Sequence record: PP430345
Origin: Escherichia phage vB_EcoM-LTH01
Reading direction: 5' to 3' (one strand)
Length of the DNA stretch: 64,000 nucleotides
The notes below the pieces were generated by a model, which saw only the letters and a list, made by a program, of their open reading frames with translations, ran no database searches and was not told the DNA's origin. The position numbers and the translations under genes were made by a program. This document shows, piece after piece, positions 3,754-43,093 of this stretch (positions are counted from its first letter, which is position 1; each line of letters begins with the position of its first letter).

Positions 3754-4340
3754 TGGAATACATTAGTTGGTTGTTTATCTTATCTGCGTGGGTTATCTTT
3801 GCTATCTGGTTAGCCCCTGTGATCATCGCTTTCCGTCGTAATCACAAGAACAAGGTTGTAATTTTAGCTTTGTCATTCTTTACTTCAATGATCCCTTACC
3901 CGCTTGCATTGTTTGCTTGTTGGATAGTTCTGTTGGCTTGGTCATTGTATAAAGTTTCAGTGGTCAATGATGGCTCAAAGTCTGCATATTTAGATTCTAA
4001 GTATCTTGAGTATGCAAAAGGACCGCAAGGTTTACCTGGTCCAATGGGTCCCCGTGGAGAGTCTGCTTATGAAACATACCTGAGAATTCTTCGTAAAGAA
4101 GATCCTAGCGCTATCCCACTAAATGAGAAGGATTGGCTGGATAGTTTAAAAGGGTTGGATGGTGACAAAGGTGATCGAGGGCCATCTGCATACGATCTGT
4201 ATTGCTTATCTGTATGGTCCAAAGGTGATGGTAAAGTACCTCTGTCTTTAGATGAGTGGCTAGAATCTCTCCGTGGTAAAGATGCAGACGAATTACCTTT
4301 ATCTAAAAAAGGTGTCGTTAGTCCACCAAAACGTCCTTGA
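3753..4340 (+). CDS. membrane protein: superinfection-immunity-like TM domain fused to collagen/tail-fibre repeats (195 aa)
   Basis: N-terminus WLAPVIIAFRRNHKNKVVILALSFF..WIVLLAWSL resembles the Imm_superinfect TM motif. C-terminus has a GPQGLPGPMGPRGE G-X-Y run and two 'SAY....W(L)(D/E)SL(K/R)G' tail-fibre repeats. Confidence 0.6.
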   Translation: MEYISWLFILSAWVIFAIWLAPVIIAFRRNHKNKVVILALSFFTSMIPYPLALFACWIVLLAWSLYKVSVVNDGSKSAYLDSKYLEYAKGPQGLPGPMGPRGESAYETYLRILRKEDPSAIPLNEKDWLDSLKGLDGDKGDRGPSAYDLYCLSVWSKGDGKVPLSLDEWLESLRGKDADELPLSKKGVVSPPKRP

Positions 4341-4373
4341 CAGAAAGTTAAGTGTGGGGCATAATGGCCCCAC
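4337..4373 (+). promoter_or_regulatory. sigma70-type promoter with embedded GGGG/CCCC stem-loop (PeSL-like)
   Basis: TTGACA (4337-4342, overlapping the upstream TGA stop), 17-nt spacer, CATAAT (4360-4365). Hairpin GTGGGGC-ATAATG-GCCCCAC spans 4354-4373. Confidence 0.55.
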
Positions 4374-4394
4374 TTAAACAACAGAGGAAAGAAG

Positions 4395-4775
4395 ATGAGT
4401 ATTTTTGACGGTAAAGATTATTTGGTTGCTGATTGGATTCCTATCTCTGCGACACGTAACATTCACATTTACGATGGTGTTAAGAATTTGAATACGACGA
4501 TCATCTACACAAACAGTGAAGAAGACCGTGAAATGCAAATCATGAGTGTCTTCGGTATTGATGATGAGAATAAGATTGAAAAAGGTCGTGCTCGTATTGG
4601 TATCGACATTTTCGACCTGTCTGGTGACCAAAGTGCAGATCCCGTAAACATTGACCGTTCTCGTGTGTTTGCTCACAAAGAAGAACAATTTACGGAAGAA
4701 CTTATTAAAGACTTGCAGATGATCAACACTTTGTTTGATAATGTTCATGAAAAAGTTAAGCGAGTTTATCTCTAA
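4395..4775 (+). CDS. hypothetical protein (126 aa)
   Basis: ORF track. GAGGAAAGAAG SD upstream. Confidence 0.6.
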   Translation: MSIFDGKDYLVADWIPISATRNIHIYDGVKNLNTTIIYTNSEEDREMQIMSVFGIDDENKIEKGRARIGIDIFDLSGDQSADPVNIDRSRVFAHKEEQFTEELIKDLQMINTLFDNVHEKVKRVYL

Positions 4776-7356: not shown

Positions 7357-10300
7357 TTAGCGACGAGTGATGAATACGTCAATCAATGGGCCTTTGCCAC
7401 GATAAACCATGTTAACTACCGATACAGTGTTTGCATCTGTGTTGATGGTTTCAGTACCGTGTACAACAAACTCCGATCCGAATGTTACCGCATGTCCACC
7501 TGTACCATCCTGTTCAAAGAAGAGGAACACTGACTCACCTTTTCCTGAACTCAACAGGCCAATCGGTGCTTTCACTTCAACATCATTTATAACGTTTACG
7601 TTATATATGCTCGTTGAGCCGTCTGGGATATAAGAAGAAGAGGTGGTGCTTACTTCTTTTGGTGTGGTGCTGAACTTGCTTGCGGAAATGGCGTTTTCAG
7701 AACTAAGGGATTGAACATTTAACGGTACAGTCGGGATATTAAACTGACCAGTTACAGTCAGGTCTGTTATGTTCGCCGTCGTTAACGTAGCTGTCGTGGT
7801 AGACAAAGATGCAGGCTCGATCGCCTTTCCAGACAAGTCGATATTGCCAGAGATGTTACCAACAACAGTCAGGTTTCCACCAACTCGAAGGTTCTTGTTG
7901 ATGTTTGCACCGGAAAGAGAAGTTATCCCGTATGTAGGTGCACCTTCATAATCTTCACCGAATGTACCAGATAATCCAGTTACCGATGTACGAGACTCAA
8001 TGGAAAGGGCACTTACTGTTCCCGTTGAGGTCATAGAAGCAACGTTAACGTCTTGAGAGCTAAGGTCAATGTTGCCAGTTACAGTTCCTGTTACGTTAAG
8101 GTCGCCCTGAATCTCACCTGGTCCACGAACTTCAAGAGCAGGATCACTAGACCCGACAGTACGAGTGATAACCGTGTTACCTGAAGTTACTTTACCAGCA
8201 CGGATATCATCGGTGATGACTTGATCAATGTTGCCTATCCCTGAAACCTCTAAGCTTCCTGCCATTACTTGTCCAGTTGAAATCAAAGAACCAACTTCAG
8301 CTTGACCTGTGGCAACAATTGCAGTAGTCTGAATCTCAACTTGAGCGGTTACGCTACGGGGAGAGATATCTTTACCGTTTATGCTTTCCGCTGTCCCTAA
8401 GGCGTTACCATTCGCGTCCAGAAGAGATCCAAATACCTGTACGTCATTGAAGCTTGCTTGACCTTGAACAGATGTGATATTACCAGCGGTGATAGTCAAA
8501 CCATCATTTAAGGTAACAGCACCTTCCAAGAGGCTAGTCTCTTCGACACGTAGCGTTTTAGTTCTCACAGACGTTGCAGACTGCACACTATTTGGAAGAA
8601 TGTCTTGACCAGTGACGTTTGCAAAGAATTGCTCACCATTGGCATTTGTCAGGTTTCCAGTTACCTGAAGATCTACCGTAGTAATCTTTTGATTGTTGGT
8701 TATGTTATTAGCAGTAACCTCGTCAAAAGTTGATCCACGAGTAACCGTCAGGGTATTAACCTGAATGTCCCGCCCAGTGAGGTCTACTTCAAAACCTGTT
8801 ACAGTTCCCGTGATTGTCAGGTTATTTACCTGAGTTTCTCCAGTGGCTGTCAGGTTTGCCGTTGTAACGCTCTCAGAAGCTTCTACAGACGTTGTTTCCA
8901 CAGAGGATGGGAGAATGTCTTGTCCGTCAACATTTCCCGTTACAGTGATTCCTGTGGTGGTTCCTGTGACTACAAGATTGTTAACCGTTGTGGTCGAAGT
9001 TGTTCCTGCGGTAATGTCGCCACTAACTGAGAGGCTCGCACCATCAATTGCAGCAGCCGTTATGTCCCCAGTATCTAAGCTTTGGATACTTAACTCACCG
9101 TCTAGAGTAATATCACCACGAACACGCATGTTGTTACCAACATCGATGTTTCCTGTGGTTGTCACCGAAGAAGGAGAGATTGCTTCACCATCAATAGAGA
9201 CTGTAACTCCCGTCAGGTTTCCAGTGATCTCAAGATCCTTGATCGTTGCCTTGTTAGTCACTGTCAGATCTTGGAATTCAACAGCAGAAGTTCCAAAGTC
9301 GATATCGGCCCTGAGTGTTCCATTAACCGTCAGGTTGTTTACCGTAACATCGCCGGAAGCAGTAGTAGGTCCAGTAATGTTTAAGCTCTCTGCCACAGTA
9401 ACAGATGTTGCACTCACATTACGAGGGGAAATGTCTTTCCCGTCAACACCGATTCCAGCACCCGTGAGAGTACCTTCGATTCTTACATTTTTCAATACTG
9501 TATTGCCAGCAACGGCAAGATCTGCACCGAGAGTTGTATTTCCCTTGACCTCCGCAGTTCTTTCAACCACAATGCTGTTAGGATTAATATCCAGACCTTC
9601 AACGTCAGCCTTCAATCCTTCAATGGTGTTCGTCACACGAAGAGTATTTATTTCCGCAATACCGTCAACGATCAGCTGTGGGCGGTCTTCTGCGTTATTG
9701 GCATTACCCTCTAAGTGAAGATAGTCACCTTGCATGAATCCATCAACATCAAGAGAATTCGTGGAAACAGAGGTATTTCCAACCTTGATCTCTCTCGCAG
9801 TTATATTATCGCTATCAACAACACCAGTGGTGACTTGGAAAGGCTTTATATTTGTTCTTTTGGTTAACCCTGCCTGGGGTGGAACGCCATTTTGTTCAAA
9901 TGCGATTTCTGCGTCTGTGCCTGTCATTCGTAATCTTTTTAAAGATAATTCGGCATCAAGAGCAGCGATCCTGTCGCCAGTGAAGATGGTTTCTCCACTT
10001 ACATAGAGATCTTTCAGACTCGCATCATCTGCAACGATAATGTTTTGGAATTCACCTTTGGACTCTTCAAGAACCTCACCACGTACTTTTTCTATTTCTC
10101 GGCTAACCCAAGCGGTGTTCGCGATAGTAAATGAGCTATCACCTTCAGCAGCAAGAGGTACAGTAGGGTTTCCACGGAAGACAGGGGAAAGGATAGGGGC
10201 GTAAGTTTCTTGAATGTTACCTTTATCGAAGAAAGGTCTGAACTTCCCGTCGTTGATCGGACTGTCTCGCATAACGACAGGGGTACTAGTAGTTGCACCT

Positions 10301-38870: not shown

Positions 38871-40358
38871 TTATCGTCTATACCTGGAATACATCGTAGG
38901 GGCGTGAGGTCGTGGTATTGGAACAGCACGGACAATTTCTGTTTTCTCCAGATAGTTAATACCCGAAGAGATGGCATCCACCCAGTCGTCCTTACGTGAT
39001 CCAGTTGACCTCTCGCCGTCGAAAGATTCAAGTTCCTTCAATAAAGCTTCTAATGTGTCCACAGGGAAAGATTTCTCAACAATCCGTACAAATCCGTTCT
39101 GTGCTAAGTTAGCGAACGGAGAGAAGCGTACAAGCTTCTTTTTGTTACCTGGTGTTGGGTCTTTCTCAACCATGAACCCTTGATTCAATAACTCACGAGA
39201 AGATGTAGTAAATTCGGATAGACCTGCTTGACCAGGGTCAACAGGGAAGATGATCCTAACGTCATCTCCGTCATGTATTGCCTGTTTAAGAATAATCTTG
39301 TCACGCTCACCTGCTTTTTTGCAGAAGCGTCCGGCTTGTCCAGTGGACCAATCGCCAGTATCAACGAATTCATCACAATAATCACCGAACAGGTAGTAGA
39401 ACCCATCCTGATCTCGCGCTACACCTATACCTGCCGTGAAGTCAGGTGTTTTGTTACCTGTGGAACGCTCTGTACCTGCTTTATCGTAAGATCTAACCTT
39501 GTCGCAATTAAGCGGGAGATGATCTACATTTTTGAGGAAAGAACGTTTAAAATAGTTTGCACCCTGCGGACGAGCATCCCAGTTACCATGAAGAAGTCGT
39601 GCACGGTCAACCTCGTTAAGACCTTCCAACTGAGCAAGGTATTCGGGGTTGTTGATAAGCATTGGCGGGTTGTCATAAATAGTGGAAGATATGAATGTGA
39701 ACGATACGGGCTTACATTTCTTACCATAACGTTTCTTCAACTCCTCTACTGAGTCTCCCCACATGTATTGGTCATCCACACGGACGAAATAACGAATAAC
39801 TCCGTCTTTTTCAGGATTAGGATAGCCATCCTTATCGAGATACCAGTCAACCATCTTACGAAGGTAATGATCAGGATCAGGGTTGCAACTTATTACCATA
39901 CGGGAAGGGTATTTTGAGTTTGAACGCAAACGGGACATCATATATTCCAACTGTTCCCATTCGAACTGTGTTCCTTCGTCAACTCCGATAAAGGTAAACT
40001 CCAATCCCTGAATATCGAATTTATCGCTTACGTGTTGCATAGACTGCCATTTAACGGTAGCCCCGTTAGGAAATGTTGCAGTCATTTCATTTTCTTTAAA
40101 CTTAGGCTTAACTACCGGAGGTAGTTGGTTGTAAATATCCTTAGCTTTGTCGAACAAACCACCTTGTCCACGAATCTGAGGGACGGTACGACGGAACATG
40201 ATACATGCTGTTCTGGGGTCGTTTACAATCAACAAAGGCATCAACTGGAGCAGGTAGGACTTACCTGATCCTGCTGCACCACCTATAACCATTATTTGTG
40301 CGTCAGATTCGAGAACCATTTGTTGCTTTCGACTCGCTGGTGCGAATGTAGCAGACAT
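38871..40358 (-). CDS. terL: terminase large subunit (495 aa)
   Basis: Walker A motif VIGGAAGSGKSYLL. Walker B / coupling region FIGVDEGTQF. C-terminal nuclease-type acidic motifs. Confidence 0.9.
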   Translation of the reverse strand: MSATFAPASRKQQMVLESDAQIMVIGGAAGSGKSYLLQLMPLLIVNDPRTACIMFRRTVPQIRGQGGLFDKAKDIYNQLPPVVKPKFKENEMTATFPNGATVKWQSMQHVSDKFDIQGLEFTFIGVDEGTQFEWEQLEYMMSRLRSNSKYPSRMVISCNPDPDHYLRKMVDWYLDKDGYPNPEKDGVIRYFVRVDDQYMWGDSVEELKKRYGKKCKPVSFTFISSTIYDNPPMLINNPEYLAQLEGLNEVDRARLLHGNWDARPQGANYFKRSFLKNVDHLPLNCDKVRSYDKAGTERSTGNKTPDFTAGIGVARDQDGFYYLFGDYCDEFVDTGDWSTGQAGRFCKKAGERDKIILKQAIHDGDDVRIIFPVDPGQAGLSEFTTSSRELLNQGFMVEKDPTPGNKKKLVRFSPFANLAQNGFVRIVEKSFPVDTLEALLKELESFDGERSTGSRKDDWVDAISSGINYLEKTEIVRAVPIPRPHAPTMYSRYRR

Positions 40359-40458: not shown

Positions 40459-40758
40459 TTATTTGCAGAACTCTGGTGGATTTTCTTTAAAAATATTACA
40501 AACGTAGGTCTGTAATCCTTCAGCACGTCTTTCTATTCTTGCAGCACGAAGATTGTTATGACTAAGAACGTCAGCAACAGTTGTCTTTGCAGAGCGTTTT
40601 TCCATAACCAGCTTAGGACCTTCTTTCTTCATAAGTTCAAGATCCGGCTTTTCGATCAGCTTTTCTATCTTAACTTCTTCAGTAGGACCACAAATTTCTT
40701 TACTCTGACAACCAACAAGACCAAAACAAAGGATAATTCCGGCGATAATCTTCTTCAT
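40459..40758 (-). CDS. outer-membrane spanin lipoprotein (o-spanin, 99 aa)
   Basis: Signal peptide with lipobox MKKIIAGIILCFGLVG|C. Directly follows the i-spanin gene with a 1-nt overlap. Confidence 0.65.
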   Translation of the reverse strand: MKKIIAGIILCFGLVGCQSKEICGPTEEVKIEKLIEKPDLELMKKEGPKLVMEKRSAKTTVADVLSHNNLRAARIERRAEGLQTYVCNIFKENPPEFCK

Positions 40759-41117
40759 TATTCCCCCAGTGATTTGTTATAGATATCAACTATCTCATCA
40801 TCCATAAATATTTCTTGTCCCTTTTTAGATTTTGCATAGTCGATTCTCATTGCCTCTACTTCATCACGTAATTTTTCCTCAGCGATGATCCGTTTTGCAT
40901 TTGCATAAGAAAGTTCTTCATTCAATCTCTTATTCTCTTCCAATGTAGAGTCAAGCTTTCCTTTGTACTCAGTAGCTTTCTTTATCCAAGCCGTGTTTGC
41001 AGCATCGTAGCCTTTGTCATATCCCACAGACTCAACGTGTCCGAGATACAGTTTTCCAGAAGTAAATAACGCAACGCCGATCATTGCGTAAATGAAATAT
41101 TTTTTAGCGGGTAACAT
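40758..41117 (-). CDS. inner-membrane spanin (i-spanin, 119 aa)
   Basis: ATG 41117 has an AAAGGAGGA SD. N-terminal TM (YFIYAMIGVALFTSG) followed by a coiled coil (LEENKRLNEELSYANAKRIIAEEKLRDEVEAM). Confidence 0.6.
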   Translation of the reverse strand: MLPAKKYFIYAMIGVALFTSGKLYLGHVESVGYDKGYDAANTAWIKKATEYKGKLDSTLEENKRLNEELSYANAKRIIAEEKLRDEVEAMRIDYAKSKKGQEIFMDDEIVDIYNKSLGE

Positions 41118-41155: not shown

Positions 41156-41185
41156 AAATAAAAAAGCCTCCCAAATGAGGGAGGC
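41156..41185 (-). terminator. rho-independent terminator closing the tRNA operon
   Basis: Minus strand reads GCCTCCC-TCATTT-GGGAGGC followed by TTTTTATTT. Confidence 0.7.
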
Positions 41186-41234
41186 TGAGGCGAAGGAGAG
41201 GAGATTATATTATTGTTATTATATGAGGGTAAAT

Positions 41235-41309
41235 TGGCTGGGGATACTGGACTCGAACCAGTGAATGTTGGAATCAAAATCCAATGCCTTACCGCTTGGC
41301 TAATCCCCA
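41235..41309 (-). tRNA. tRNA-Gln (anticodon UUG), CCA encoded
   Basis: Hand-folded canonical cloverleaf. Acceptor TGGGGAT/ATCCCCA, anticodon arm TTGGA-TTTTGAT-TCCAA, T arm ACTGG-TTCGAGT-CCAGT. Confidence 0.9.
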
Positions 41310-41317
41310 TTTTTGTT

Positions 41318-41393
41318 TGGAGCGGATAACGAGACTCGAACTCGTGACATTCTGATTGGAAATCAGAAGCTCTACCAACTGAGCTATACCCGC
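41318..41393 (-). tRNA. tRNA-Gly (anticodon UCC), CCA encoded
   Basis: Acceptor GCGGGTA/TATCCGC, D arm AGCTCAGTTGGTAGAGC, anticodon arm TCTGA-TTTCCAA-TCAGA, T arm ACGAG-TTCGAGT-CTCGT. Confidence 0.9.
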
Positions 41394-41398
41394 ATATT

Positions 41399-41475
41399 TG
41401 GTCGGTGTACGAGGATTTGAACCTCGAACCTAATGCTCCCAAAGCATTCGCGCTACCAAGTTGCGCTATACACCG
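41399..41475 (-). tRNA. tRNA-Pro (anticodon UGG), CCA encoded
   Basis: Acceptor CGGTGTA/TACACCG, anticodon arm AATGC-TTTGGGA-GCATT, T arm CGAGG-TTCAAAT-CCTCG. Confidence 0.9.
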
Positions 41476-41479
41476 TATT

Positions 41480-41560
41480 TGGCGTGAAGGTGAAGAGTCG
41501 AACTCCTTACGACTGGTTTTGGAGGCCAGCTTGCCACCGTGACAATTATGTTACCCGCAC
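41480..41560 (-). tRNA. tRNA-Trp-like (anticodon CCA), atypical 81-nt form
   Basis: Canonical loop CTCCAAA, T loop TTCGACT and CCA. However, the acceptor GTGCGGG/CCTTCAC has a C.U mismatch, and 8 nt rather than 2 precede a TTGTCA-CGG-TGGCAA D hairpin. Confidence 0.55.
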
Positions 41561-41567
41561 ATTAATT

Positions 41568-41642
41568 TGGTTTCCGTACTGGATTCGAACCAGTATCACA
41601 ACGAGACGTTGCGGGAATCTTATCCTATAAGCCTAACGGAAA
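41568..41642 (-). tRNA. tRNA-Arg(UCU)-like with a closed anticodon loop
   Basis: Perfect acceptor TTTCCGT/ACGGAAA, T arm ACTGG-TTCGAAT-CCAGT and CCA. The anticodon arm is CGCAACG-TCT-CGTTGTG (opened, the loop is CGUCUCG with no U33). D arm is CTTAT-AGG-ATAAG. Confidence 0.5.
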
Positions 41643-41645
41643 ATT

Positions 41646-41732
41646 TGGTGCATTGTGATGGAGTCGAACCACCCGAGTTCTATGAACAGCAGATTTACAG
41701 TCTGCCCCGCTACCCCTACGGTCTAACAATGC
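41646..41732 (-). tRNA. tRNA-Tyr (anticodon GUA), type II, CCA encoded
   Basis: Acceptor GCATTGT/ACAATGC, anticodon arm GCAGA-CTGTAAA-TCTGC, variable arm GTTC-ATA-GAAC, T arm GGTGG-TTCGACT-CCATC. The D region is irregular, with 4 nt before the CCG/CGG stem. Confidence 0.7.
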
Positions 41733-42040
41733 CTTATCCTACGGTCACACAAGTCTGACCATCTATCTCTGAGCAAGGGATTTCAAAATGTCTCCCGTCC
41801 CCAAATACATCTCGCCACATAGTCTATTCGGAAGCGGGAGTCTATGCACACCCCTTGCGGTAAGTGACCTCACTTTGAGATCAGCATCTTCCTTATTCGA
41901 CGAGTTAAATTCTCTTTAAGGTAGCCAGTGTTCGCAGCACTAACTATGAGGTATCCGTAAGATGATTTCAGTCATCTACCGAAAAATTACACCAAGCAAC
42001 TACCTTAAAGAGAACTTCTTAGTAAAGGCCCTTGCGAGCC
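41733..42040 (-). ncRNA. candidate structured stable RNA(s) inside the tRNA operon (~300 nt, ORF-free)
   Basis: No ORF. A 15-bp perfect long-range helix (41910-41924 / 42000-42014) encloses two hairpins. Further hairpins lie at about 41742-41759, 41856-41873 and 42025-42042. Confidence 0.35.
41910..42014 (-). repeat. 15-bp perfect inverted repeat (TTCTCTTTAAGGTAG / CTACCTTAAAGAGAA) separated by 75 nt
   Basis: Read directly from the sequence. The loop contains AGATGA-CTGAAA-TCATCT and AGTG-CTGCGAA-CACT hairpins (minus-strand sense). Confidence 0.8.
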
Positions 42041-42042
42041 TT
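42025..42042 (-). terminator. strand-specific hairpin with GCAA tetraloop at the ORF stop
   Basis: Minus strand reads AAGGCUC-GCAA-GGGCCUU (7 bp, one G.U). The same position is a C.A mismatch on the plus strand. No U-run, so it is likely a processing or stability element. Confidence 0.45.
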
Positions 42043-42415
42043 AATCTTCACCTTCTGCCATTTTATACTCACGAATCTGAGTAGTTAATGGAATAGCATC
42101 TTTAAATGCATCAGAAGGGCCTTGATGAGTTTCTGAATTTGCAGAAGTAGTTCCTCCTGCCAGATCCTCTTCATTATCTTCCATTGTGTACAGATTGTTT
42201 GCCTTTTCAGCTTGCTCAAGAATATACTTCGCAGTAGTTTCTTTAACTTTCTCTGTACCGGAAGTCAGTAGACCTTCCAGAGTTTTAATTGCTTGAGGAG
42301 TAAGTCTTGCAAACTCGGAACGAGCATGAAGAATTGCTCTCTCAGTATTGATTGCAATGCTTTCCTCTGTAGTAGGCCGACCGCGTTTTCGAGTAACGAT
42401 TTCAGCTTTAGCCAT
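42041..42415 (-). CDS. putative DNA-binding protein embedded in the tRNA operon (124 aa)
   Basis: ATG 42415 lies 6 nt after GAGG. N-terminus MAKAEIVTRKRGRPTTEE carries an AT-hook-like GRP followed by helical HTH-like segments. It resembles small-terminase N-termini, but this is unproven. Confidence 0.5.
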   Translation of the reverse strand: MAKAEIVTRKRGRPTTEESIAINTERAILHARSEFARLTPQAIKTLEGLLTSGTEKVKETTAKYILEQAEKANNLYTMEDNEEDLAGGTTSANSETHQGPSDAFKDAIPLTTQIREYKMAEGED

Positions 42416-42442
42416 AAACACCTCAATTCAGTCGATATAACT

Positions 42443-42471
42443 ATATTAGCAGTATAATAGGATTATGTCAA
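42443..42471 (-). promoter_or_regulatory. sigma70-type promoter internal to the tRNA operon
   Basis: Minus strand reads TTGACA (42471-42466), 17-nt spacer, TAATAT (42448-42443). Confidence 0.6.
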
Positions 42472-42607
42472 GAACTTATTGAAATGTATTAAGAAATGAA
42501 ATGGGGGTGCGCCGTTTCTGCTGTAATCTACGTCGTTATCGTTGAGGGAACTCGTAGTCAGGGAACATCAGTCCGACGACTTATCGGGAGCGACCCGACT
42601 TCTTATG
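42472..42607 (-). ncRNA. ORF-free spacer RNA downstream of tRNA-Met
   Basis: Contains hairpin CGGG-TCGCT-CCCG and direct repeats AAGTCG x2 and GTTCCCT x2 (minus sense). No T-loop motif. Confidence 0.2.
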
Positions 42608-42682
42608 TGGTGGCCCTGGGTGGAATCGAACCACCGTCTGGCGATTATGAGTCGCTTGCTTGAACCGTCCAGCTACAGGGCC
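42608..42682 (-). tRNA. tRNA-Met (anticodon CAU; could instead be an Ile2-type), CCA encoded
   Basis: Acceptor GGCCCTG/CAGGGCC, anticodon arm AGCGA-CTCATAA-TCGCC (A.C at positions 27-43), T arm GGTGG-TTCGATT-CCACC. Confidence 0.85.
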
Positions 42683-42698
42683 TGTATTTAAAAGAACT

Positions 42699-42784
42699 TA
42701 GCGCGGGAGGAAGGACTCGAACCTTCATACTCCAATTACTCGATTAACGACGGTTTAGAAGACCGTTGAGATACACCCGCGCTA
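42699..42784 (-). tRNA. tRNA-like element: UCU anticodon loop, long variable arm, no D arm, no encoded CCA
   Basis: 9-bp terminal stem TAGCGCGGG/CCCGCGCTA. T arm GAAGG-TTCGAGT-CCTTC. Anticodon arm ACGGT-CTTCTAA-ACCGT begins only 9 nt after the acceptor. A 23-nt variable region carries the hairpin TTAAT-CGAGTA-ATTGG. Confidence 0.45.
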
Positions 42785-42786
42785 AA

Positions 42787-43093
42787 TTCTCTTGTGGGTG
42801 GTGACAGGTTTTGGATATTTAACGACAGGATAACCTTAAACCTCGTCATCATGACAAGGGGTACACCGTAAAAGATTGTCGTGGTATTAAAACTATAATG
42901 ATCCGTGGATCACTAATCAGACGATCTTCGACGGCTCCCCGATATACACAGGGATGGACTGGGCATCCCATTTAGTCGCAGTCAACCAAAAGCGTAAATC
43001 GCGGCGGTGGTATATTGGTTCCAACATATATTTATCCACCCAGCCTTCAAGATGACTAATCTCTCAGGCAACAAAATAATCTTACATATTTAA
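42787..43093 (-). ncRNA. candidate structured RNA / long leader upstream of the tRNA-like element (~300 nt, ORF-free)
   Basis: Hairpins at 42841-42859 (7 bp), 42899-42912, 42951-42969 (GGGATG/CATCCC) and 43006-43040 (GGTGG..CCACC composite). Confidence 0.3.

Follow-up and report, generated by a model that had tools for sequence, protein, structure and literature searches.

Several RNAs with the shape of a tRNA do not take part in decoding: the stable RNAs C and D of phage T4, mascRNA, the vtRNAs of gammaherpesviruses and the tRNA-Other of B. cereus. RNAs C and D lie among the tRNA genes of T4; RNAs of this sort are tRNA-shaped, are presumably processed by the tRNA enzymes and stand outside ordinary decoding. 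Here we consider three adjacent tRNA-sized units on the minus strand of a 64,000-nucleotide (nt) stretch of Escherichia phage vB_EcoM-LTH01 (record PP430345); this whole stretch is called the window below. The three are a Tyr unit (41646-41732), an Arg-like unit (41568-41642) and a Trp unit (41480-41560). They are probably conserved members of three distinct non-canonical lineages of the tRNA family, with the Tyr and Trp units being working tRNAs and the Arg-like unit a non-decoding RNA. Their expression, processing, charging and biological roles we infer from sequence.

Among the described tRNAs of unusual build, tRNA-Sec is marked by an 8/5 (or 9/4) acceptor/T geometry, the UCA anticodon, a long variable arm and a D stem of 6 base pairs (bp) with a 4-nt loop (PMC7609411). 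The cores of tRNA-Pyl and of the mammalian mitochondrial tRNA-Ser(UCN) are compact: the D loop is small, the anticodon stem elongated and the variable region very short (PMC7609411). Phage tRNAs are also known to act against host nucleases. The tRNA-Tyr of T5 resists retron-Eco7 PtuAB through its distinctive variable loop, and the tRNA-Tyr of T6, when over-expressed, overcomes Septu, whose cleavage falls in the variable loop at C48/A49 (PMC11555353; PMC13096335, section 8). A screen that covered 245 tRNAs of coliphages showed rescue to require the decoding anticodon (PMC12445682). Our literature searches returned no description of the RNAs of the present locus.

The tRNA region of the window (41200-42800) is 97.5% identical to Escherichia phage UPEC06 and in part 95-98% identical to the Septuagintavirus phages A7_1, A73, W70 and A5-4 (Vequintavirinae). 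The source of the window is a Vequintavirinae phage near these phages. In its cluster of six tRNA-sized units, ARAGORN called Gln, Gly, Pro and Tyr and missed the Trp and Arg-like units. The Rfam tRNA model (RF00005, gathering score 29 bits) recovered none of the three odd units at its gathering score. In a relaxed search (E<=10) the Arg-like unit had no match, and the Trp and Tyr units matched tRNA-Sec only, with 19 and 32 bits, respectively. The Trp-like and Arg-like homologues in related phages also went uncalled by Rfam, as did the Tyr unit of phage SSBI34 (the sole Tyr of the same type that was tested), while the canonical neighbours in the relatives were all called by the Rfam tRNA model, at 34-72 bits. 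An earlier note on this DNA, made from the letters alone, had held that the three units do not fold as ordinary cloverleaves. The ARAGORN and Rfam runs agree with it, since no ordinary alignment to the covariance model was obtained. Because the general models fail on the odd units both in the window and in the relatives, the hand folds are no artefact.

Some parts of the units are regular. All three have a 7-bp acceptor, a 5-bp T stem and a 7-nt T loop of the UUCRANY type. The connector from the acceptor to the D arm, 2 nt in canonical tRNAs, has 4 nt in the Tyr unit and 8 nt in the Trp unit (both lengths being conserved in the respective families) and 2 nt (UA) in the Arg-like unit. A 5-bp anticodon stem with a 7-nt loop, U33 and a purine at position 37 is present in the Tyr (CUGUAAA) and Trp (CUCCAAA) units and absent from the Arg-like one. 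BLAST found homologues of each unit in other phages (E-values reaching 1e-20 or below), and the covariation in the Trp and Arg-like families exceeded 500 of 500 column shuffles and every control with slid partners. Therefore, the features are not a product of chance.

The Tyr unit, read from its 5' end, has the acceptor strand GCAUUGU, the connector UAGA (41722-41725), a D arm, the anticodon arm GCAGA-CUGUAAA-UCUGC (anticodon 41696-41698), the variable arm GUUC-AUA-GAAC, a T arm and the end ACAAUGC-A-CCA. The type-II Tyr(GUA) form and the 4-nt connector are present as noted earlier; the D arm is better read as a 4-bp stem, CCGU/GCGG, with the 7-nt loop AGGGGUA. The minimum-energy fold coincides with this cloverleaf. 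The gene (87 nt) had matches in 1,479 phage records, of which 1,141 covered at least 80% of the gene, and identity was 74-88% among the matches listed outside UPEC06. The matches include T5-like Demerecviridae, Tequatrovirus, Jiaodavirus, Felixounavirus and rV5-like phages, and the gene is mostly annotated as tRNA-Tyr.

We parsed members of seven Tyr lineages and verified each parse against the source sequence. The seven lineages had a 7-bp acceptor, a 4-nt connector (UAKN; 5 nt in the T5-like copy), a 4-bp D stem CCGU/GCGG (UCGU/GCGA in the T5-like copy), a D loop AGRGGUA of 7-8 nt, the anticodon loop CUGUAAA, a long variable arm, a T arm and A73-CCA. Sequences of the acceptor, anticodon, variable and T stems varied across the lineages and the pairing was always kept, i.e. 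the changes were fully compensated. The window unit thus shares with the phage tRNA-Tyr family the connector of UA plus 2-3 nt, the CCGU/GCGG stem, the AGRGGUA loop, CUGUAAA, the long variable arm and A73-CCA, and differs from it in the sequence of the variable arm. The comparison indicates that the Tyr unit is a typical member of a very large phage tRNA-Tyr family, whose signature is a connector of 4-5 nt before a normal D arm; the family is evidently functional, and the unit is already known in kind. Its anticodon loop CUGUAAA is that of E. coli tyrT, and its variable arm GUUC-AUA-GAAC is unlike the one of tyrT. The unit would supply tRNA-Tyr during infection, which in homologues defeats nucleases of the PtuAB type.

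The sequence of the Trp unit is GTGCGGG TAACATAA TTGTCA CGG TGGCAA G CTGGC CTCCAAA ACCAG TCGTA AGGAG TTCGACT CTTCA CCTTCAC G CCA. It is laid out with an 8-nt connector UAACAUAA (41546-41553), a D arm made of a 6-bp stem and a triloop (UUGUCA-CGG-UGGCAA, 41531-41545), the anticodon at 41520-41522, G73 and CCA. The canonical loop CUCCAAA, the T arm, the CCA, the 8-nt connector, the mismatched acceptor and the TTGTCA-CGG-TGGCAA hairpin, all pointed out in the earlier note, were found as quoted. The acceptor has a C4.U69 mismatch and a G5.U68 wobble. The former is kept in five of the eight distinct family sequences, a mismatch A49.A65 is likewise conserved, and the pair 31-39 is C.A or U.G.

Homologues of the Trp unit were detected in 51 phage records, 40 of them with a coverage of at least 80% of the length. 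The records belong to Seunavirus (PVP-SE1), Mydovirus, NDO71, Avunavirus Av-05 and SSBI34, and two IMG/VR contigs have the gene as well; among the matches listed, PVP-SE1 alone has the gene annotated as tRNA-Trp. With a covariance model made from six sequences we obtained eight distinct members (about seven groups) at 64-107 bits, compared to at most 52 bits for ordinary tRNAs. In the model-based alignment of the eight, 89% of the cells were paired and 12 of the 23 pairs had changed on both sides. None of 500 shuffles reached the observed values, and partners slid by 1-3 columns gave 44-54% pairing.

The D stem is the strongest part of the Trp alignment, with all six pairs covarying and 98% of the cells paired. 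The variants are UUGUCA/UGGCAA, UUGCAG/CUGCAA, UUGCAA/UUGCAA, UUGCUC/GAGCAA, UUGCAU/AUGCAA, CUUCAC/GUGAAG and GGCGGG/CCUGCC. The connector (consensus UARNNUAA) and the triloop YGG are conserved in the family. The SSBI34 copy has UGU as its triloop and UUAGAUU, in place of UUCGAYU, as its T loop, which is suggestive of the change expected if the last base of the triloop is G19 and the tertiary pair G19:C56 became U:A. The GG of the triloop would still dock on the T loop, so that the L shape is kept.

The decoding end of the Trp family is constant. The loop CUCCAAA, G73 and CCA are invariant in eight of eight members and are the same as in E. coli trpT, a gene found in a single copy across 5,426 genomes. 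The major identity elements for the bacterial tryptophanyl-tRNA synthetase (TrpRS) are the anticodon C34 C35 A36 and the discriminator G73 (PMC9976931). The pair 1-72 is G-C in the window and, in the family, A-U (four sequences), G-C (two) or G.U (two), A1-U72 being the minor, context-dependent TrpRS element. In PVP-SE1 and in the Mydovirus contig, with clusters of 14-24 ARAGORN tRNAs, the Trp unit is the sole one with a CCA anticodon. By inference, the unit would be a working tRNA-Trp(CCA), in which TrpRS identity (CCA and G73) and decoding are kept with a core unlike that of every host tRNA.

With respect to the described classes, tRNA-Sec shares with the Trp unit a 6-bp D stem and a tiny loop (4 nt in tRNA-Sec; PMC7609411), and it is for this reason that tRNA-Sec was the only, weak, Rfam match of the unit. 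We rejected the assignment to tRNA-Sec, since only the long D stem is alike and the score was 19 bits against the tRNA-Sec gathering score of 47. The Trp unit further departs from tRNA-Sec by its 7/5 acceptor/T geometry, its CCA anticodon, its D loop of 3 nt and a connector of 8 nt rather than 2, and it lacks the long variable arm.

A metagenome scan for further Trp variants gave two loci, a known Mydovirus type and a chance match. Two narrow IMG/VR pattern scans returned already-known genomes only. An IMG/VR scan with an anticodon-arm pattern gave 120 loci, mostly canonical Trp tRNAs, and included two new family members (L124 and L080) as well as several other Trp tRNAs with miniature D arms. 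Further tRNA-Trp(CCA) genes of IMG/VR with a CUGGC...ACCAG arm and a C31.A39 mismatch are located in contigs L058 (4467-4538), L097 (10536-10607), L144 (8836-8909) and L081 (3563-3645). In the first three of these the miniature D arm has a connector of 0-1 nt, a 4-bp stem and a GG loop of 3-5 nt. The copy in L081, with a connector of 8-9 nt, a 5-bp stem and the triloop UGG, is closer to the Trp type of the window. Another IMG/VR group (e.g. L031, L033 and L035) combines Trp anticodon arms with long variable arms. An 'RNA ligase' adjoining the Trp gene in a Klebsiella phage record was disregarded, as the table of coding sequences (CDSs) of this record overlaps the tRNA cluster and has every CDS flagged as a pseudogene.

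The Arg-like unit has the sequence TTTCCGT TA GG CTTAT AGG ATAAG ATT CC CGCAACG TCT CGTTGTG AT ACTGG TTCGAAT CCAGT ACGGAAA CCA. We read it as a 7-bp acceptor followed by UA, the D region GG-CUUAU-AGG-AUAAG-AUU-CC, a hairpin of 7 bp and 3 nt (41597-41613) in the place of the anticodon arm, a 2-nt link AU, a canonical T arm and ACGGAAA-CCA. The acceptor, the T arm, the CCA, the CGCAACG-TCT-CGTTGTG arm and the D triloop described earlier are all present. The minimum-energy fold keeps the acceptor, the hairpin and the T arm (z = -2.75).

For the Arg-like unit, 79 records cover at least 80% of the length. Homologues were observed in A7_1 and A73 (95-96% identity), in dozens of Phapecoctavirus genomes (76-82%), in Mydovirus NDO71, in the siphovirus phiEB49 and in three IMG/VR contigs. 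The Phapecoctavirus copies sit in an unannotated tRNA-sized gap between tRNA-Ile and tRNA-Met. Among the matches listed, the RNA is either not annotated or has a hypothetical CDS on top of it, except for phiEB49, where it is called tRNA-Val. An IMG/VR scan with a D-arm/T-arm pattern gave 60 loci, including three distant members (L163, L195 and L174). When about 1 Mb of further phage tRNA-cluster loci was searched with a covariance model of the Arg-like RNA, the window copy was the only one recovered. The variation within Phapecoctavirus was too low to set the RNA apart from its neighbours.

In the alignment of 14 distinct Arg-like sequences from five lineages, 96% of the cells were paired and nine pairs had changed on both sides; none of 500 shuffles matched this, and slid partners gave 36-44% pairing. 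For example, the acceptors read UUUCCGU/ACGGAAA, UUCCCGU/ACGGGAU, GGCCCGU/GCGGGCC, UCCUCGU/ACGGGGA and UACCCGG/CCGGGUA, and the helix that replaces the anticodon stem reads CGCAA/UUGUG, CACAA/UUGUG, CGCAG/GUUGCG or CCCAG/CUGGG. The D region, GG/GA-CUUA-NNGGN-UAAG-NNN-CC/UC, is nearly invariant in sequence, and an extended D arm is supported by covariation at a single outer pair, which is G-C or A-U.

The hairpin loop has no such constancy. It is UCU in the window, closed by a G-C pair, and in UPEC06 only; elsewhere we found UAU, AUAUC, CUUA, UUUA, UUU, AGGCAU, UUAACAA and RACUUAAGA. Loop lengths are 3, 4, 5, 6, 7 and 9 nt, and a constant triplet is absent. Close relatives have UAU or AUAUC and Phapecoctavirus copies CUUA, UUUA or UUU (3-4 nt). 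The claim of an Arg(UCU)-like species with a locked anticodon therefore does not stand: there is no conserved anticodon, and UCU is an accident of lineage, because the loop varies and the nearest relatives read UAU, which would correspond to another amino-acid identity.

The ends of the Arg-like RNA also vary. The discriminator and CCA are inconsistent, with C-CA in the window, A-CC or A-CA in Phapecoctavirus, A-CCA in phiEB49 and G-CCA in NDO71, and the family has neither G3.U70 nor a shared identity set. Given these three facts, charging by a single synthetase seems unlikely. Only 2 nt (AU or AC) lie between the hairpin and the T arm. The nearest ordinary relative is a canonical tRNA-Ile(GAU) of an IMG/VR phage, at 52 bits. 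We regard the unit as a tRNA-shaped, non-decoding RNA and not as an Arg tRNA.

This RNA resembles tRNA-Pyl and mt-tRNA-Ser(UCN) in its small D loop, its elongated anticodon stem and the shortness of its variable region. However, those tRNAs keep the 7-nt anticodon loop and decode, while the Arg-like RNA has a loop of 3-9 nt with no constant triplet; it differs from them also by the retention of G18G19 and of TΨC-type loops and by a variable region of 2 nt. As for the non-decoding RNAs named above (T4 C and D, mascRNA, the vtRNAs and tRNA-Other), we found no sequence relationship; their size and architecture differ, and none of them has the GGCUUA-NNGGN-UAAGA D arm together with a free hairpin. 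We take the Trp tRNA and the anticodon-less RNA to be of known kinds but structurally new, and annotation has largely overlooked both.

Two observations concern the neighbourhood of Arg-like genes in other phages. Just after tRNA-Thr, the Mydovirus contig L027 (3313-3387) and NDO71 (597-671) have positional orthologues, both with 6-nt 'anticodon' loops. In the L027 copy, which ARAGORN reports as tRNA-??? with a 2-nt anticodon, the D arm is canonical and the loop reads ACGAUA; the NDO71 copy has the Arg-like D arm. The Phapecoctavirus tRNA-Met(CAU) directly after the Arg-like RNA (L005, 1280-1358; the same place in L018-L023) is 76-79 nt long, has an apparent extended D stem (GAGGA/UCCUC) and 50 bits in Rfam, and in some records is named 'tRNA-Pseudo-CAT' or 'tRNA-OTHER'.

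Several observations weigh against the assignment of the three units given above. Thermodynamic folding of the Trp unit does not yield the cloverleaf (z = 0.06). Covariation events are few, with eight distinct sequences (about seven groups) for Trp and five lineages for the Arg-like family, and the G19:C56 tertiary covariation was seen in one lineage only (SSBI34). The register of the Arg-like D arm is ambiguous: the NDO71 and Phapecoctavirus copies can form a more canonical D stem of 4-5 bp, and the inner D helix never varies, so it has no support from covariation. Finally, the phiEB49 copy, with its 7-nt loop UUAACAA (Val-AAC according to ARAGORN), suggests that at least one member might still decode.

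If the units were decaying tRNA pseudogenes carried along in the cluster, one could expect that tRNA finders miss them, that the Arg-like unit has lost a usable anticodon loop and that the Trp acceptor has a C.U mismatch. On the other hand, the C4.U69 mismatch is itself kept in most of the Trp sequences, the Trp anticodon loop is invariant, and conservation extends across genera and families at 75-90% identity. The helices show compensatory double substitutions, with pairing far above the shuffled and slid controls. The marks of pseudogenes, i.e. uncompensated stem changes and conservation among close relatives only, are absent; instead we see compensated changes and 89-96% pairing across genera and families. 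The covariation leads us to exclude decay as very improbable, and the three units are maintained by selection. That random decay fits poorly had been argued in the earlier note, and the compensatory substitutions that the alignment of relatives revealed in all three families support this. A mutation in the D stem of E. coli tRNA-Trp, G24A, permits reading of UGA with no change of the anticodon. This shows that the D arm tunes decoding, and the remodelled D arm could by the same token make the Trp tRNA a specialised decoder, such as a UGA reader of the Hirsh type. We give this idea hardly any credence and rejected UGA read-through, as the scan of open reading frames (ORFs) of the window shows no sign of recoding: 22 of its 71 ORFs of at least 100 codons end in TGA, and none has an in-frame extension of at least 80 codons.

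The model proposed in the earlier note was that the cores are remodelled so as to escape host anticodon nucleases (PrrC, RloC, PARIS, PtuAB) or to titrate them as decoys. For the Tyr unit this has a published basis: its homologues counter PtuAB nucleases, in T5 by resistance of the variable loop and in T6 by dosage (PMC11555353; PMC13096335), the unit belongs to that phage family, and its variable arm differs from that of E. coli tyrT. The link to the T5 and T6 tRNAs is made through T5-like and Tequatrovirus members, not T5 or T6 themselves, and nuclease evasion by the window Tyr unit is thus suggested by analogy with homologues only. A competitive decoy, too, might look like the Arg-like RNA, in which the tRNA body holds a hairpin that cannot be cleaved. 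However, the Trp and Tyr units share their anticodon loops, CUCCAAA and CUGUAAA, with trpT and tyrT of E. coli, so nucleases directed to the loop would not be evaded, and a difference of the loop from the host isoacceptor, which marks nuclease-evading phage tRNAs (PMC10264068), is absent in both; for the Arg-like RNA, which has no anticodon loop, the comparison does not arise. The statement that the anticodon and D regions were altered for escape from anticodon nucleases is not supported in this form; the nuclease-related features of the Tyr homologues are in the variable loop, not in those regions. Published rescue by phage tRNAs needed an intact decoding anticodon, which the Arg-like RNA lacks and which disfavours simple replacement by it (PMC12445682), and the one literature search made on this point turned up no defence system against tRNA-Trp. 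Therefore, what remains of the idea of a counter-measure to nucleases is its support for the Tyr homologues, by variable loop or dosage, and not by changes of the D and anticodon regions; as a model for the three units we consider it unlikely.

For the Arg-like RNA, RNase P and the 3' processing and CCA enzymes would excise it like a tRNA, and it would act through its shape. Selection would keep the acceptor, the T arm, the near-invariant sequence of the D arm and a helix in the place of the anticodon arm, with the loop left free. We tentatively suggest that the RNA may be a trans-acting tRNA mimic held by some tRNA-binding protein through its shape and invariant D arm. Its carriers are Septuagintavirus-like phages, Phapecoctavirus, a Mydovirus, phiEB49-like siphoviruses and uncultured phages. 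A cis-acting role is hardly less probable, though likewise doubtful: the unit could be kept only as an RNase P substrate or processing module, maybe also as a structural cap at the 3' side, by which the tRNA just before it in a tightly packed polycistronic transcript has its 3' end freed or shielded. Recognition by RNase P agrees with the observed constraint, the acceptor, the T arm and the GG of the D loop being kept and the anticodon loop free. The unit is always 1-6 nt downstream of a canonical tRNA, and in four of six contexts, A7_1/A73 (after Tyr), phiEB49 (Arg), L163/L174 (Gln) and NDO71 (Thr), there is no ARAGORN tRNA within at least about 270 nt downstream, the gap to the next tRNA in NDO71 being about 270 nt. 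Yet the D arm and the anticodon-arm helix are dispensable for RNase P and are conserved, the former nearly invariant in sequence in five lineages. In the window and in Phapecoctavirus the unit is internal and the next tRNA would itself give an RNase P site; a simpler solution for a phage would be deletion of the unit. We consider quite unlikely a bolder form of the trans-acting mimic, in which the Arg-like RNA is a new class of phage anticodon-less tRNA mimic that, in trans, inhibits a tRNA-directed immune nuclease of the host, or another tRNA-binding factor, or serves it as a non-cleavable decoy, and the core of the Trp tRNA is invisible to an undescribed tRNA-Trp nuclease that recognises the tRNA body.

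Inventories of phage tRNAs are incomplete, as are the codon-usage arguments resting on them, since among the matches listed the Trp gene (40 records in all) and the Arg-like RNA (79 in all) mostly lack a fitting annotation and the description of Septuagintavirus counted five tRNAs with ARAGORN (PMC11370258). A decoding tRNA with an 8-nt connector and a D arm of 6 bp and 3 nt is not among the non-canonical classes reviewed in PMC7609411, and the Trp tRNA would make a natural test of what the ribosome, EF-Tu and TrpRS need from a tRNA core. Several E. coli defences cut tRNAs, and a conserved non-decoding tRNA-shaped RNA is a hypothetical counter-measure or a candidate processing device.

The cluster has six tRNA-sized units on the minus strand with spacers of 3-8 nt, as direct reading of the sequence confirmed. 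Downstream of the Tyr, Arg-like and Trp units come three tRNAs that had been rightly taken for textbook ones, all called by ARAGORN: tRNA-Pro(UGG) at 41399-41475 (Rfam 67.6 bits), tRNA-Gly(UCC) at 41318-41393 (72.4 bits) and tRNA-Gln(UUG) at 41235-41309 (65.8 bits). The cluster is closed by an intrinsic-terminator-like hairpin with a U run on the same strand (41165-41186), with eight pairs, six of them G-C, followed by TTTTTATTT. A sigma-70-like promoter candidate, TTGACA-17-TAATAT with TG (10 of 12 matches), is located at 42443-42471 on the minus strand, upstream of the ORF 42044-42421 and the tRNA cluster; both elements are pattern matches only, from a consensus scan. The three odd units would be co-transcribed with Pro, Gly and Gln from this promoter-like site.

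The ORF 42044-42421 belongs to phrog_3330, a family of unknown function in PHROGs. At the head of its own tRNA cluster, in the same position as this ORF, PVP-SE1 has gp82, which its record describes as similar to rV5 gp070; the likeness to the window ORF is positional only. Two Rz-like spanin ORFs (phrog_4297 and phrog_1267; 40462-41117, minus strand) lie between the tRNA terminator and the large-terminase ORF 38871-40358. We found no tRNA-related enzyme beside the cluster among the flanking ORFs, for which Pfam gave no hits and PHROGs gave phrog_3330 upstream and the spanins downstream.

The records of UPEC06, A7_1, A73, W70 and A5-4 have no tRNA annotation at this locus, and UPEC06 has hypothetical CDSs placed over the cluster. 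In the window, small plus-strand ORFs at 41433-41630 and 41567-41758 overlap the cluster; in UPEC06 (3886-4612 of its locus) such ORFs are annotated as hypothetical proteins, with no tRNA features. The RNA-type covariation suggests that the CDS calls over the cluster are spurious.

Upstream of the cluster ARAGORN also calls a tRNA-Met at 42608-42682, and a second odd element is found at 42702-42780 on the minus strand (with flanks, about 42695-42785). Its CUUCUAA loop, with the anticodon UCU, is canonical and its T arm is normal; 4 nt stand in place of a D arm, and the variable region has a 20-nt insertion. Its closing stem of 10-12 bp, TTAGCGCGGGTG/CTCCCGCGCTAA, lacks a discriminator and CCA. 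The element scores 35.8 bits with the Rfam tRNA model (gathering score 29) and is conserved in A7_1, where one G-C pair has become G.U. The real Arg(UCU) decoder of the phage may be this element, or it may be another tRNA-like RNA.

In PVP-SE1, the annotated tRNA-Lys at 1787-1872 (Rfam 65.7 bits) is reported by ARAGORN as tRNA-??? with a 4-nt anticodon (ggca), i.e. with an 8-nt loop; it could be a tRNA similar to frameshift suppressors. In the IMG/VR phage contig L185, which also has 17 tRNA genes, ARAGORN detected a permuted transfer-messenger RNA at 8378-8676, with the tag ANDETFAIAA.

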